Shown here: one piece after another, positions 27,711 to 32,907 of the stretch
How positions within the stretch are numbered: the stretch's first letter is position 1
How the letters are laid out: each line of letters starts with the position of its first letter
Source of the DNA: Oscillospiraceae bacterium
GTDB taxonomy: Bacteria > Bacillota > Clostridia > Oscillospirales > Ruminococcaceae
Length of the DNA: 32,907 nt
Direction: 5' to 3'
Assembly (NCBI GenBank): GCA_045595985.1
Contig: JAZOBK010000098.1
Span: forward strand, 1-32,907
Position numbers and translations under genes: made by a program
The notes under the pieces: model-generated
What the model was told of the DNA's origin: nothing
Databases searched by the model: none
The model's input: the letters and a program-made list of their open reading frames with translations, nothing else

Positions 27711-28034
27711 ATGAAGTATAAATACATCCCCCTTCTTCTCTGCACCCTCCTCCTTACCGCCTGCGGACAGGAACACCGTCTGTCATGCAATCCGGAGGAG
27801 CCGGGGAAATTGGCAGAAAGCATGGTGCAGGAAATTTCCACCGAAACGGAGTATTTCTACGATGCACAGGATCGTGTCACCCGTGAGATCGTCCGTTCGA
27901 CCTATCTGGACGGAATGCTTTATGATACGATGTACGGCTATGACGAAGCCGGACGAAGACTCGAATTGACAAGCGATCATAGTGATTCGGAGGTGTCCGT
28001 GCATTTGTGGTATGGATATGTATACTTTTATTAA
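27711..28034 (+). CDS. small lipoprotein with YD-repeat-like motifs
   Basis: Signal peptide with lipobox LLTAC. YDAQDRVTRE and YGYDEAGRRLEL resemble the YD/RHS repeat consensus. Confidence 0.6.
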   Translation: MKYKYIPLLLCTLLLTACGQEHRLSCNPEEPGKLAESMVQEISTETEYFYDAQDRVTREIVRSTYLDGMLYDTMYGYDEAGRRLELTSDHSDSEVSVHLWYGYVYFY

Positions 28035-28186
28035 TTTGGCAATTAGCCATTGATAAATTCATTTTTCCTATTTTATAAAGCGGCTTTTTGAGGTGCCCGT
28101 AGAATAACACTTGTAAGCAAAATGAATATAATTGCGTTTTTTGCCCACAATAGAATTGTACAGAGTTACAAAAAACAAAAAAAAGC

Positions 28187-28215
28187 TTGACATTGCACCT
28201 GTATTGTGATATACT
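28187..28215 (+). promoter_or_regulatory. strong sigma-A promoter of the tRNA gene
   Basis: A-tract (UP-like), then TTGACA, 17 nt, TATACT, with a TGn extension. Confidence 0.55.
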
Positions 28216-28252
28216 TATATAGTACTTGACACATAACGTCCTGTACTCATAT

Positions 28253-28329
<77 letters not shown>

Positions 28330-28333
28330 CACC

Positions 28334-28400
28334 GAAAAGCACTATGCAATTGTTTTGGAGAAGGGCCAGAAAACTCCGCGACTTTTGCATAGTGCTTTTC
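28334..28400 (+). terminator. 16-bp perfect inverted repeat with a 35-nt loop, then a T-run
   Basis: GAAAAGCACTATGCAA … TTGCATAGTGCTTTTC followed by TT. It starts 5 nt after the tRNA. Confidence 0.4.
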
Positions 28401-28627
28401 TTATGCCTATTTTACTACATTTTTTGAGGTTTGTCAAGAGGTGGGATTGAAAATCCAAACCGGACTCTACATCAAAATTTTGTCATAGTGAGGTAGATGA
28501 GTGATGTAACTGGTAGCGTGCCAAACTCAAAAATACAGCTACCGTACAGCTACGCAAAAAAATCAGTAAAAATTCATTTCATATCATTGCGTGCCATCAG
28601 GTGTCTCAACAAAAATTAACATCTTCT

Positions 28628-28653
28628 GAAAGGCTCCCACTCGGGAGCCTTTC
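28628..28653. terminator. 11-bp stem hairpin downstream of the amidotransferase-like gene
   Basis: GAAAGGCTCCC-actc-GGGAGCCTTTC. Confidence 0.5.
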
Positions 28654-28687
28654 GTCATGCCGCTTCATACCATGTTTCTGTATCCTG

Positions 28688-29632
28688 TTAAACTTCCGCC
28701 ATCTCCAACTCCTCCTCCAACACCGAAGGCTCCCACAACATTATCTCAATTTCATCATACGAGAACCCCAGATCAATCAGCCGCCGTACCTCCTCCGGTG
28801 TCACGCAGAAATACCCGCACATCTCCAACAGAATTGCATAATCATCCGTGCTTTCGGGATATTCATCCTCCCATCCGAAGATACTCCCAGAATATCTGCC
28901 GTAGCTGTATGTCTGCGCCATTGTAAATGTATCACGGCTGAAACTGCCATTCTTGCTGATCTTCAAAATCTCCCCATCCTGCACCTCAATCACGGAATAA
29001 TTCAGATGATTCAGCGATACTGCCTTCAATGCCTTGTGCATGATCCCGGCAGTCGAGGCATATGCATAAAGCCTGAAATCCGGGAAATAAACCAGATACA
29101 GCGGACTCGAACCCTTGACAAAATACAGATTGTTTTGCTCGTCCAGAAGCGTGAATGTAAAGCTCCCACGCACAGATTCCGCCATGCTGCGCAGACTCTC
29201 AAAATTCAGCTTCCCTTCACGCTCAATCAGCTGCACGGCAACATAGCTGTCGGTTTCGATCGGCGTATGGGGGAGCTGTTTTTCCTTGCGCAGCTCCGCA
29301 TCATTGTACAAAACACCGTTGTGGGCGAGGGCGAATTCTTTCCCAGCATTCCCATGAAACGGATGATTGTTGTAATTCTTCTTCTGGTCGCCCTGCGTCG
29401 TGAAACGAGTATGCCCCATCACAGCGGTCGTACCTTTCGGGATGCGGAATCTCATCTTGTGAGCCGGACGGGGACGCTTGTAAATCGTCAGCTTTCCGCC
29501 ACACTTGTAGGCAATGCCGCTTGCATGATCGCCCCGTTCTTCCGAGGCATTTGCCAGTGCCTGCACCAGCTTTTGCAGGACTTTATGCGGAATTTTCTTG
29601 CCGCAGTCAAGGTATCCAAATAATGCACACAT
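28688..29632 (-). CDS. stand-alone class II (Ntn) glutamine amidotransferase-like protein with an acidic C-terminal extension
   Basis: N-terminal MC (Cys2 nucleophile). GHTRFTTQG…NNHPF…LAHNGVLYN motifs are typical of Ntn GATases. TAGGAGG RBS. No synthase domain is present. Confidence 0.75.
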   Translation of the reverse strand: MCALFGYLDCGKKIPHKVLQKLVQALANASEERGDHASGIAYKCGGKLTIYKRPRPAHKMRFRIPKGTTAVMGHTRFTTQGDQKKNYNNHPFHGNAGKEFALAHNGVLYNDAELRKEKQLPHTPIETDSYVAVQLIEREGKLNFESLRSMAESVRGSFTFTLLDEQNNLYFVKGSSPLYLVYFPDFRLYAYASTAGIMHKALKAVSLNHLNYSVIEVQDGEILKISKNGSFSRDTFTMAQTYSYGRYSGSIFGWEDEYPESTDDYAILLEMCGYFCVTPEEVRRLIDLGFSYDEIEIMLWEPSVLEEELEMAEV

Positions 29633-29643
29633 GATTGTTCCTC

Positions 29644-29910
29644 CTATTTTCTATTTTTCAGAATGTCCGAAATATCGATCGTTCGCAACTCCTCAGCAGT
29701 CAGCAGGATCATCGTGTCGCAGAGATGGATGAGCGTTTGCAGGACGCTGTAAACTTTGTTCAGGTTGATGGTCGTGCCGAGAATTTCAATCCTCGCCCGA
29801 CCGGTGGTGATCAGGTACAGGCAGACTTTTGAAAGCATCTGCACCGTGCCACGAATCATGCCCCAGGGGACTTTCCGGAGGTACTCCATCAGTCCAACAG
29901 TTGCTTTCAT
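29644..29910 (-). CDS. hypothetical protein (88 aa)
   Basis: Tightly packed upstream of the amidotransferase-like gene (11-nt gap). I do not recognise a family. Confidence 0.45.
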   Translation of the reverse strand: MKATVGLMEYLRKVPWGMIRGTVQMLSKVCLYLITTGRARIEILGTTINLNKVYSVLQTLIHLCDTMILLTAEELRTIDISDILKNRK

Positions 29911-30030
29911 TTACATCTCCTCCTCGCCTGTGATCTCCTCATTGATGTACAGCCGCCGTTCCTTCAGGTACTGAATCAGCTCCGGTTCCGTGACGGATGC
30001 CACAAAATCCGACCACGACAGTGATTGCAT
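29911..30030 (-). CDS. possible 39-aa ORF (MQSLSWSDFVASVTEPELIQYLKERRLYINEEITGEEEM)
   Basis: Found by manual translation. Its TAA is directly followed by the ATG of the 88-aa ORF. It is below the ORF-track size cutoff and could be a gene fragment. Confidence 0.25.
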   Translation of the reverse strand: MQSLSWSDFVASVTEPELIQYLKERRLYINEEITGEEEM

Positions 30031-30050
30031 TTCCTCGTCGGACAAAGTAA

Positions 30051-30173
30051 AAGCCACATCACAGATCCAAGATACTCGGACACAGCAGCGTTGGATTTAC
30101 TCTCGATGTCTATGCGCATGTGACGGAGACGTTGAAGGTGGAGGAGATCGGCAAGCTGCAGGGATTTTTGTGA
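30051..30173 (+). pseudogene. C-terminal remnant of a tyrosine recombinase/integrase
   Basis: Manual translation gives KPHHRSKILGHSSVGFTLDVYAHVTETLKVEEIGKLQGFL*. The LGHS…T…YxH block containing the catalytic Tyr is present. A stop lies immediately upstream and there is no N-terminal body. Confidence 0.7.
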
Positions 30174-30184
30174 TTGCTTAAAAA

Positions 30185-30204
30185 TGCCTCCCGTTAGGGA
30201 GGCA
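30185..30204 (-). terminator. rho-independent terminator (second of two) after the PIWI-like gene
   Basis: The minus strand reads TGCCTCCC-taac-GGGAGGCA followed by TTTTT. Confidence 0.65.
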
Positions 30205-30220
30205 GAACAATAAAAAGATA

Positions 30221-30250
30221 AGGACTGATACACTGCCATGCATCAGTCCT
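30221..30250 (-). terminator. hairpin plus T-run (first of two) after the PIWI-like gene
   Basis: AGGACTGAT-12 nt-ATCAGTCCT, followed on the minus strand by TATCTTTTTATT. Confidence 0.5.
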
Positions 30251-30261
30251 ATCATTCAAAT

Positions 30262-31182
30262 TCAATTTACATCCAACCCCAAAGTCCGTACATACTCTCT
30301 CAAATACTTGAATGGAAACGGCAGAACAGTCAGCTGCCCATTCCGTACAAATGTCACATTCATGAGCGGTAGCAGATTATCAAACATCATCGGTGCATCT
30401 TCATAAGGCTCAATTCTGCGAATATTAACTGCAGTGTGCAATGTGTATTTCATGCCTGCTCCAATTGCACCAACAAAATAGAAGGTACTATTTCCATCAT
30501 AGAGTTGCTTGATGTCAATGCTGGCAGAAAGCAGCTCCTCACGCATTTGTTTTCCACGCAGAGCGGTATTACCATTTTTCAGTTCTTCACGGATTCTGAA
30601 CAATTCAGGAATCGTCACCCATCCGGTATCCTTGATGATGTTGATATTACCATTGTGATCACGAATCAGTCCCTTGATCGTTTCTGAATTACTTTTTGCA
30701 TCTGCAAAGATCTGTACACATCGGCTGAACTGCTGTTCTTCGAACAAATCCAGCTCCTGTTCGGAGATGGCAAAGCTTCCGTCCGGATGAATCTGCATAA
30801 AGAAATATCTCTCCGTAGTTTCATTCTCTGCCATCATGCCAAAGGAGATATCCTCCTGAAGACCAAGCTTTTCCCAGTCAAACAAGCGGATGCGCTGTTC
30901 CTGCAAATCTGCCTTGATAAGCAGTTCATGTACAACTGTAGAAATGGCATACTCCGCATGATCGCCAAAATCCTCAAAGGTGATATGCTGTACAGCTGCA
31001 TCGGGGTATTGCTTCTGATGCGGATCATTCCCATCCAGATAATACGATGCATTGTGAATCAGGCAAAGATTCAGATGCTTCTTTAATACACGCTTCCCAA
31101 TCGGAGCTGAGATATTGTATTTTTCCAGAAGTAAAGCCTGCATCTTTTTGCAAAACTCCTGTGAGTACACATCATCAATCAT
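30262..31182 (-). CDS. hypothetical 306-aa protein; candidate minimal PIWI/RNase H-like (Argonaute-type C-terminal motifs)
   Basis: The ATG at 31182 overlaps the upstream stop by 8 nt (ATGATTGA). The longer 418-aa ORF start lies inside the upstream gene. C-terminal motifs: IIKDTG…ELFRIREEL, FYFVGAIG, and TFVR-x7-PFPFKYL. Confidence 0.5.
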   Translation of the reverse strand: MIDDVYSQEFCKKMQALLLEKYNISAPIGKRVLKKHLNLCLIHNASYYLDGNDPHQKQYPDAAVQHITFEDFGDHAEYAISTVVHELLIKADLQEQRIRLFDWEKLGLQEDISFGMMAENETTERYFFMQIHPDGSFAISEQELDLFEEQQFSRCVQIFADAKSNSETIKGLIRDHNGNINIIKDTGWVTIPELFRIREELKNGNTALRGKQMREELLSASIDIKQLYDGNSTFYFVGAIGAGMKYTLHTAVNIRRIEPYEDAPMMFDNLLPLMNVTFVRNGQLTVLPFPFKYLREYVRTLGLDVN

Positions 31183-32907
31183 ATGCCATGGCAATACGAA
31201 AATACCGTTCTTTGTTATAGTTGTTCTGACTGTTTTCCAGAACTGAACGTTCCAGATCATGATAAATTTTTTCAGCAAGATCACGATCTGAAACGACCTG
31301 CATCCATGTATCCAGTGAATAATCTCGACTGCCAAGCAGCTCCGTGTGGATCTGAATATCGTTCTGATACCCGGTCTGTGCCTCCTGGAATTCTGCACGC
31401 AGCCGTTCATAATCTGAATTGGGAAGCTGATAATACACGGGCTGCATTTTTGAACGCAGATAATCCAGATCAAAGTTTCCGATGACTGTCGGAACTGTTG
31501 CGGTTGCAGAAATACCAATCACTTTTGCGCGCTCACAGAAACGAAGCAAAAATTTCTCCGGCGTATTCTGGAACGAATACATCATGATATGGGACTGCAT
31601 ATCATGCATGGAATCATCCTCAAAGCAATAATATCGGAATCCATGCTCGTAGAGTGAACGGTCAAATTCGGTTCCGGCGATCGTATCACTTTTTGATTTC
31701 CTTGTGGAAATCATGATCTGGGAGGTGAGATAATCCGCATCATGCTGACGAAGATGGAACAAGGAAAGAACAGTACGAATCGCAGATTCCTGTGAAAATT
31801 CGTCCTCACCTTCCTGACGTCTTTCATTTTTGCATTGCCTGTAATTGATGGCAAGAATATTGACTGTCATCTGGAACCAACGCATGAACCCACGCAGTTT
31901 TCCCAGCATGACCTGAATATTACTACGATCGGATTCTGGTTTTGTTTCTGTAAATCGGATAGCATTGATTTTATTCTTGCGATCGCTGACAGTAGAAACA
32001 TAATTGTTGGAACCGTTCAGAATGGAATGAAACTGGTGATCCTGAAAGAGGAAGTTTTTTGATGCTGGTTCTGTTTCAACAGTGGTACGATGGCTGAACT
32101 GCAGGGAATAGTTCTGATAGATTTCGTCAGCGAGTTGCTTTGTATCCTCCAAAACGGATTGGAGGGATTGATTTCTGTAGCTGCTCTCCATTCTTTGGCG
32201 TGATGGTGTTGTCAATGCAGCAGGGAACTCGTTTGTCTGCATTGCAGCATAGATGGACTTGAAAAGTTCAATAAAGTCAATTTTATCACGCAGACCGTTC
32301 TGAATGATATTTTTGAGCATGGTATCCTTGGTAGAATCGAATTCATCAATAAAAATAACAGCCTTTTCTACAAGTTTTGAGTTGTAGAACATATAGGAAG
32401 GCTCAACAATGGTCGCATTCCGAACAAGAAATTTATCCATGCTCATGAAGAAAATCTGTCTGTCCCGCGTGAATACTGCGGGGTATAATAACCCCAGCCA
32501 TTGCCAGCGTTTTTCTGTCTTGATAGCAGTGATACGCTGTCTGACACTGCTGTATTCATGGGCAAGCAGTTTTTCCAGCTTTCTGCGAAAGGCTGGTTCC
32601 GTGCGTTCACGGAAATTTTTTTCGATTCCTTTTGCCATTTCTCGTGACCGATAGTCCCTATCAGCTTTCTGAAGAAAGCTGATTTCCAGAGAGAATGCTT
32701 TGTACTCGTCGGTCTTTCGAATGTCATCGGGGATTGCATTATGTAGAGCATCTGTGAAATTCGTTACAGCACTTTCCCAATTAGAATCAAGAAACAGAAA
32801 CTTTTCATGAAACTCTGTCAGTTTTCCGGCTTGTGCAAAGAAGTCTTGCAGGTCTTTCTGGGGAAGATTTTTCTTGAGCGGGGTAATGAAGTCGGAGGCC
32901 AAGCGGT
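31175..32907 (-). CDS. helicase/NTPase-like protein, 5'-truncated by the window edge
   Basis: The frame is open to the window end and no Walker A motif is in view. It has a Walker B/motif II-like VIFIDEFD, then about 275 aa later a motif III-like VIGISATA. AT-rich codon usage. Confidence 0.55.
   Translation of the reverse strand, partial: RLASDFITPLKKNLPQKDLQDFFAQAGKLTEFHEKFLFLDSNWESAVTNFTDALHNAIPDDIRKTDEYKAFSLEISFLQKADRDYRSREMAKGIEKNFRERTEPAFRRKLEKLLAHEYSSVRQRITAIKTEKRWQWLGLLYPAVFTRDRQIFFMSMDKFLVRNATIVEPSYMFYNSKLVEKAVIFIDEFDSTKDTMLKNIIQNGLRDKIDFIELFKSIYAAMQTNEFPAALTTPSRQRMESSYRNQSLQSVLEDTKQLADEIYQNYSLQFSHRTTVETEPASKNFLFQDHQFHSILNGSNNYVSTVSDRKNKINAIRFTETKPESDRSNIQVMLGKLRGFMRWFQMTVNILAINYRQCKNERRQEGEDEFSQESAIRTVLSLFHLRQHDADYLTSQIMISTRKSKSDTIAGTEFDRSLYEHGFRYYCFEDDSMHDMQSHIMMYSFQNTPEKFLLRFCERAKVIGISATATVPTVIGNFDLDYLRSKMQPVYYQLPNSDYERLRAEFQEAQTGYQNDIQIHTELLGSRDYSLDTWMQVVSDRDLAEKIYHDLERSVLENSQNNYNKERYFRIAMAYD

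Follow-up and report, generated by a model that had tools for sequence, protein, structure and literature searches.

The window, by which we mean the whole 32,907-nucleotide stretch analysed, carries on its minus strand an ATG-started open reading frame (ORF) of 306 codons at 30262..31182, as the first-pass annotation had recorded. An upstream ORF at 31175..32907 overlaps it by 8 nt and runs past the window edge. Elsewhere the window has the gene content of an ordinary chromosome: nusA, infB, truB, ribF, ABC transporter genes, and genes for a DHH phosphoesterase, UDP-galactopyranose mutase, thymidylate kinase and a histidine kinase. The features of the locus and its flank are given below.

31175..32907, minus strand: 5' remnant of a ddmD-like helicase-nuclease gene, its start beyond the window edge; ends 'D-stop' two codons past the junction
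31179..31181, minus strand: deletion junction, located to ~3 nt within GCATAT/G/ATTGATGAT from alignment ends and three-frame translation
30262..31182, minus strand: 3' remnant of a ddmE-like gene (long-C pAgo), equivalent to residues ~300-602 of a ~602-aa protein by tblastn to the E-like proteins of relatives L004, L005 and L001
30877..31182, minus strand: MID domain without its first ~23 residues (ORF residues 1 to ~102, boundary approximate; HMM alignment to LcDdmE pairs S7 with S288 and K90 with K395)
30913..31020, minus strand: guide 5'-phosphate/Mg2+ pocket (H55, Q65, E86 and K90, equivalent to VcDdmE Y363, Q376, E401 and K405)
30265..30876, minus strand: PIWI domain without the INS insertion (ORF residues ~103-306, aligning with LcDdmE PIWI 408-509 and 617-715)
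30292..30354, minus strand: PIWI C-terminal block TFVRNGQLTVLPFPFKYLREY (residues 277-297), with K292 and E296 equivalent to VcDdmE K674 and E678, and R295 at the human Ago2 His807 position
30185..30250, minus strand: two terminator-like hairpins directly 3' of the stop of the 306-aa ORF (consensus scan, pattern match only)
28253..28329, plus strand: tRNA-Met gene, where GC content drops from ~0.50-0.54 to ~0.42-0.44 (low-GC stretch 28000-32907)

The 306-aa ORF encodes a homologue of DdmE, a catalytically dead 'long-C' pAgo, and sequence, profile and predicted structure agree on this assignment. Searched against the PDB as a single sequence, it matched Lactobacillus casei DdmE (LcDdmE; 9iw3_A, E = 1.2e-11) and Vibrio cholerae DdmE (VcDdmE; E = 4e-5); a profile of 34 homologues matched the same two proteins at E = 2.4e-42 (9iw3_A) and E ~1.5e-22. 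The PADLOC DdmE model recognized the C-terminus (E = 1.8e-6, profile 595-681 of 687). An AlphaFold2 model (pLDDT 82.6, pTM 0.78) was compared with solved structures using Foldseek, a check proposed in the first-pass annotation, and retrieved LcDdmE 9iw3_A as best match (E = 6.6e-13, TM 0.68 on the query), followed by Marinitoga piezophila Argonaute (5ux0_D, E = 3.4e-4, probability 1.00) and, weakly, by a SPARDA short pAgo (9qbq_B, E = 0.07). By sequence, the protein grouped with DdmE and not with short pAgos.

The significant matches to solved DdmE Argonautes were driven by the C-terminal block TFVRNGQLTVLPFPFKYLREY, and the earlier proposal that the C-terminal half is the end of an Argonaute PIWI domain is borne out far beyond chance. 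Its pairing of TFVR..PFPFKY with TYVR..PAPAYY of human Ago2 is indeed the best local BLASTP alignment between the two proteins, although the pairing alone is not significant (E = 0.14). That E value, together with Pfam (no family at E<=1, the Piwi family PF02171 that had been suggested as a check included) and NCBIfam scans that returned nothing, is what could be said for a chance motif match in an unrelated family. Solved DdmE is matched significantly at the level of sequence, profile and structure, Foldseek also retrieves the Marinitoga protein, and the neighbouring gene is DdmD-like, as in the known system; we regard such a coincidence as extremely improbable.

Conserved residues were assessed across 70 full-length homologues. 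In VcDdmE, the guide 5'-phosphate and Mg2+ are held by Y363, Q376, E401, K405, K674 and E678 (Loeff et al. preprint); profile alignment to 8u0j_A placed these six at H55, Q65, E86, K90, K292 and E296 of the 306-aa ORF. Q65, K292 and E296 were invariant (70/70), K90 and E86 were conserved in 69/70 and 62/70, and position 55 was His in 50 and Tyr in 20. On these alignments, the MID 5'-phosphate pocket is intact in the remnant. The first-pass annotation had seen no obvious MID; residues 1 to ~102 correspond to most of that domain (259-407 in the published LcDdmE limits), pocket included. Conservation of the TFVR...PxPxxY block among homologues was confirmed, with eight of its residues invariant in 70/70 (F278, T285, P288, F289, P290, K292, Y293 and E296), and overall the remnant retains 47 of the 48 columns that are >=90% conserved.

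The catalytic residues proposed earlier fared less well. Alignment of the 70 homologues for a DEDX-like set found no conserved tetrad: of the Asp positions suggested, D134 is Asp in 47 and Asn in 21, D185 is variable (D35/N12/E10/K6/G4), and the fourth position is Arg295 (R in 62/70), in agreement with the DEDX absence reported for DdmE. The claim that the catalytic His is replaced by Ala in FYFVGAIG rested on a misplaced residue. When the human Ago2 C-terminus was checked against PDB chains (residues 753-859), His807 proved to be the H of PAPAYYAH, not that of FYLCSHAG, and in the single BLASTP alignment obtained it lies opposite Arg295. LcDdmE residues ~510-616 are unmatched by the 306-aa ORF, which has a 19-aa linker there instead. 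The ORF begins at about LcDdmE residue 282 and lacks the N-terminal lobe (N, L1, short PAZ/C-APAZ and L2), which in DdmE makes up the duplex channel and recruits DdmD; full-length relatives carry ~300 further N-terminal residues.

The upstream ORF is similarly incomplete. It matched PADLOC DdmD (E = 2e-9, profile 264-613 of 1190) and, in the PDB, LcDdmD (9ix4_A, E = 5e-27) and VcDdmD (E = 1.5e-9, query 237-536 equivalent to chain 307-613). In tblastn, it aligned with residues 52-623 of the 1160- and 1162-aa D proteins of L004 and L005 at 58-59% identity, and the homology stopped at nt 31181. The remnant keeps Walker B (FIDEFD, DEFD) and motif III (SAT), stops at residue 623 of ~1160, near VcDdmD residue ~650, and is without most of HD2 and the whole PD-(D/E)xK nuclease. 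Absent from it are R709, the gate residue Q781, the arginine finger R855/R858 and nuclease residues 1059-1102 (Vc numbering). In VcDdmD, the arginine finger is needed for ATPase activity and nuclease residues E1059-K1102 for plasmid elimination; the C-APAZ of DdmE contacts DdmD, and this contact is required for activity.

Both genes are cut at one common junction, in different frames. D-frame homology ends in RIAMAY at nt 31181 (NYNKERYFRIAMAY), where D of intact relatives runs on as RIALAY-KQFI. E homology starts from about residue 292-300, at nt 31197-31179, first reading IDDVYSQEF in a frame that differs from that of D; in the E proteins of intact relatives, ~300 residues precede the corresponding stretch (IVDQIGDTYSEQF; also IVDQIGDTYS or CINDKYS). 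No further D or E pieces were found in the window. With D cut at residue 623 and E begun at ~300 at a single junction, ~2.5 kb has therefore been deleted (~2.47-2.5 kb in L005 coordinates), most simply in one event. Rather than at domain borders, the two genes are broken within the MID domain and within the helicase. The ATG of the 306-aa ORF consists of the last two bases of a Tyr codon of D and the next base. No Shine-Dalgarno sequence was found in the 25 nt upstream of this ATG (CGGTATTTTCGTATTGCCATGGCAT); intact E genes have GGGAG, GGAGG or GAGGAGG 6-9 nt before theirs. BLASTP to P0008 and P0074 had hinted at E-frame homology for ~18 codons upstream of the ATG, which we rejected: tblastn with closer relatives identified this stretch as 59%-identical DdmD in the other frame.

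Could the junction be an error of assembly or scaffolding, in an organism that carries an intact DdmDE-like pair? The exact 306-aa protein had no copy in the sequence collection searched, the junction 26-mer was absent from JGI metagenomes, and one short homologue (P0015, L087) is itself a scaffold-gap artefact; a junction seen once is compatible with such an error. Against it, the join is clean to ~3 nt, the junction has neither a run of N nor a repeat, D and E have no sequence in common on which an assembly graph might collapse, and genuine deletions of a similar kind are present in independent assemblies (L086 and L034). We consider an artefact unlikely, at long odds. A near-identical intact allele was not found (best relative 61% identical), and for this reason the sequence of the ancestor, like any microhomology at the breakpoints, is inferred rather than seen. 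A 'CATAT' microhomology is suggested by a single 58%-identical relative, and we do not claim it.

The normal form of the locus was established from relatives. The 306-aa protein had 91 homologues at E<=1e-3, of varied lengths and with a best identity of 60%. On long contigs, they belong to one standard locus: L001 has a DdmD-like gene of 1158 aa and, behind it, a DdmE-like gene of 535 aa, and in L004 and L005 a D gene of 1160-1162 aa is followed by ~600 aa of E. A scan of GTDB with one genome per species yielded 248 relatives. Architecture was counted in 67 fetched loci (from the GTDB scan and contig look-ups) with >=3.6 kb upstream: a full D gene (~1155-1160 aa) lies directly before a full E gene (~600 aa) in 62/67, usually with an overlap of a few bases. 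An exhaustive profile search gave 1218 cluster representatives at 50% identity, from Clostridia, Bacteroidales, Fibrobacter and Treponema; 127 of the 150 best of these are >=580 aa long, with the profile region at residues ~160-600. No other locus has the D623/E300 architecture of the window.

The 306-aa length, taken at first as native, reflects an ORF start at a deletion breakpoint in a gene whose full-length relatives are ~600 aa. The suggestion of an undescribed minimal PIWI family does not survive the finding that these ~600-aa relatives lie behind a ~1160-aa DdmD-like gene and that both genes are cut at a common junction here: the locus is a known kind of system in a degenerate copy, not a new minimal Argonaute. 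Nor do ~300-aa forms recur as a class: P0015 is the scaffold-gap artefact, P0013 is a different D/E deletion, and P0086, P0002 and P0005 come from the 3' portions of genes that an in-frame stop or a frameshift has divided.

At least five further independent truncations of the DdmDE-like system were found (L086, L034, L002, L043 and L039). Separate D/E fusion deletions are present in L086 (3-1165; D391/E244, P0013) and L034 (1633-3410; D341/E125). Orphan C-terminal DdmE fragments lie in L002 (7837-9216), L043 (7001-7675, equivalent to L088-L091; L043/L088) and L039 (1216-1896, equivalent to L092/L093). The 215-aa fragment P0039 recurs unchanged in 15 contigs, flanked by a GmrSD-like gene and an SLFN/AlbA_2 gene, and a 217-aa DdmE fragment sits between spoIVB-like and recN genes. 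In L038 (2955-4220), a 1.26-kb insertion splits the ddmE-like gene at residues ~379-387; it holds two transposase-like ORFs, one of 149 aa whose N-terminus resembles a helix-turn-helix and one of 245 aa, and looks like an IS element. In-frame stops interrupt the ddmE-like genes of L003 (6992-6994), L005 (6980-6982), L016, L046 and L083, and a frameshift that of L004; these may be true nonsense mutations or may stem from errors in sequencing. In Enterococcus cecorum, the interruption is common to a 12-member protein cluster. A breakpoint hot spot at DdmE ~363-387 (L043/L088, L039/L092 and the IS in L038) was considered and dropped: the clustering is mild, and a search anchored on the C-terminal motif brings ascertainment bias.

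We conclude, with a probability of roughly 88%, that the window holds an inactivated DdmDE-like anti-plasmid locus made by one ~2.5-kb deletion. Judging from relatives, the ancestor would have had two overlapping genes, for a ~1160-aa DdmD-like SF2/XPD-type helicase with a C-terminal PD-(D/E)xK nuclease and for a ~600-aa DdmE-like dead Argonaute. By homology with V. cholerae and L. casei, the MID pocket of DdmE would bind short 5'-phosphorylated DNA guides and pair them with plasmid DNA, and its N-terminal lobe (C-APAZ) would recruit and unlock DdmD, leading to 5'-3' translocation and plasmid degradation. A single deletion took DdmD codons ~624-1160 and DdmE codons 1 to ~299 and joined the remnants out of frame. 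The leftover DdmE frame starts by chance with the junction ATG, giving the 306-aa MID-PIWI ORF.

The locus probably no longer defends against plasmids: by homology it cannot work as DdmDE, because the arginine finger, the nuclease and the C-APAZ are gone. Since the native ribosome-binding site is lost, translation of the 306-aa ORF is presumably weak at most and would depend on coupling to the upstream stop, at a distance of 5 nt. The hairpins 3' of the ORF are probably the native ddmE-like terminator. The deletion appears to be recent, because both remnants are open and undecayed. Mean identity to 35 distant homologues was 0.392 for the remnant vs 0.401 +/- 0.007 for the 12 nearest intact relatives, with no rate acceleration; absence of detectable relaxed evolution means either that the deletion is recent, which we favour, or that the fragment is still constrained. 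Remnants free of stops and frameshifts, with their conserved residues in place, are also expected under continued selection, and to that extent they speak against inactivation.

On a rival reading, the 306-aa MID-PIWI protein is a functional stand-alone mini-Argonaute, analogous to short pAgos, that might partner the truncated helicase or bind guides in the role of a decoy or regulator. Its ORF is intact, all mapped 5'-phosphate-pocket residues are kept along with nearly all conserved columns, MID plus PIWI is the exact core of a short pAgo, and the predicted structure is confident for the isolated unit. The 8-nt overlap with the end of the upstream ORF would permit translational coupling, and C-terminal DdmE fragments such as P0039 persist elsewhere. 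However, the architecture is unique to the window, other short forms having different breakpoints or being artefacts; the breakpoints lie within domains; the ATG has no Shine-Dalgarno sequence; there is no APAZ or effector partner; the DdmD remnant is without arginine finger and nuclease; and the surface that recruits DdmD is gone. Functional autonomy of this kind therefore seems to us improbable, and we give equally little credence to the version in which the fragment is translated by coupling, still loads 5'-phosphorylated DNA guides and has been retained as an accidental mini-Argonaute. If this were so, the protein could serve as a sponge for guides, as a regulator or as starting material from which a new short-pAgo-like system arises, and recurrent C-terminal DdmE fragments elsewhere would reflect selection, not slow decay. 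On the favoured reading, the locus is a pseudogenised DdmDE, and an example of a deletion scar posing as an intact ORF with good motifs.

Preprints present DdmE as a 'long-C' pAgo that has no catalytic activity, uses DNA guides against DNA targets and brings in the DdmD helicase-nuclease to destroy plasmids (10.1101/2024.05.10.593530, 10.1101/2024.10.09.617351). The V. cholerae system (DdmE 687 aa; DdmD 1190 aa; PDB 8u3k, 9ezy) has homologous proteins and likewise the gene order D then E, and both it and the window copy share five pocket residues and lack the DEDX tetrad. The window copy differs in having no DdmE before mid-MID and no DdmD after ~650 (Vc), in a His in place of VcDdmE Y363, and in low sequence similarity (PADLOC DdmE E ~1e-6). 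L. casei DdmDE (LcDdmE 715 aa, PDB 9iw3/9ixm; LcDdmD 9ix4), also from Firmicutes, is the closest solved relative, at ~17% identity between LcDdmE and the window ORF in the structural alignment; the window ORF has no counterpart to LcDdmE residues 1-258 (N, L1, short PAZ and L2) or to its insertion domain (510-616). Short pAgos (SPARTA, SPARSA and SPARDA) resemble the surviving ORF in their MID and PIWI content and dead catalytic site, but they are natively short with an APAZ-fused effector, whereas the window ORF is short by deletion and has no APAZ partner. With human Ago2 and Marinitoga piezophila Argonaute, the ORF shares the PIWI fold and the C-terminal strand-helix P-x-P-x-(Y/K)-Y. Unlike canonical slicers, it has no Pfam Piwi match, Arg at the His807 position and variable Asp positions, and by homology with DdmE its family would be expected to use a DNA guide and not to slice.

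INS lies within PIWI and is reported to be conserved in long-C pAgos, and its deletion abolishes VcDdmDE activity (Loeff et al. preprint). Most of the window's clade is without it. Among the 70 full-length relatives, INS is absent in 59, which have an 18-20-aa linker vs the 107-aa LcDdmE insertion, and an insert of 85-94 aa is retained in nine (Enterococcus, Carnobacterium, Streptococcus, Polaribacter and two Clostridia); the comparison set L006-L085 (for example, L018 6101-7900 and L023 6101-7900) against L003, L074, L076 and L080-L085. Because Vibrio needs INS, the INS-less clade must contact or recruit DdmD differently. Our literature search found no paper describing an INS-less gut clade.

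Detection of this clade is poor. The PADLOC v2.0.0 DdmE model gave no match at E<=0.1 for P0074 and P0010, which are full or near-full-length, and others matched only at E ~1e-6; their DdmD partners scored E = 1e-31 to 1e-48. Standard defence finders thus probably under-call the gut and rumen DdmDE-like clade, which is large and barely detected by the PADLOC DdmE model. Its loci are often decayed, by deletions, IS insertion and premature stops, a pattern that fits frequent loss of anti-plasmid immunity.

The 5 kb around the 306-aa ORF have a GC content of ~0.42-0.44 vs 0.49-0.56 in the remaining window. A low-GC stretch beside a tRNA-Met gene fits a horizontally acquired island inserted at this site. 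The window itself shows no integrase. Neighbouring genes of the remnant locus had no PADLOC match. Immediately downstream of the remnant, a 314-aa protein (28688-29632, minus strand) with an N-terminal Cys and class-II glutamine amidotransferase domains (GATase_6/7), likewise without a PADLOC match, is encoded; an 88-aa ORF (29644-29910, minus strand) precedes its gene. Homologues of the 314-aa protein at 42-50% identity occur 3-4 kb downstream of intact DdmDE-like genes in L069 (12127-12993) and L040 (10169-10810), both Oscillospiraceae MAGs, and the gene may be a further island gene or conserved flank. Just before the tRNA-Met gene, a 107-aa ORF (27711-28034, plus strand) begins like a lipoprotein and matches an RHS repeat once (E = 3e-5), and may be a piece of a larger RHS/YD protein.
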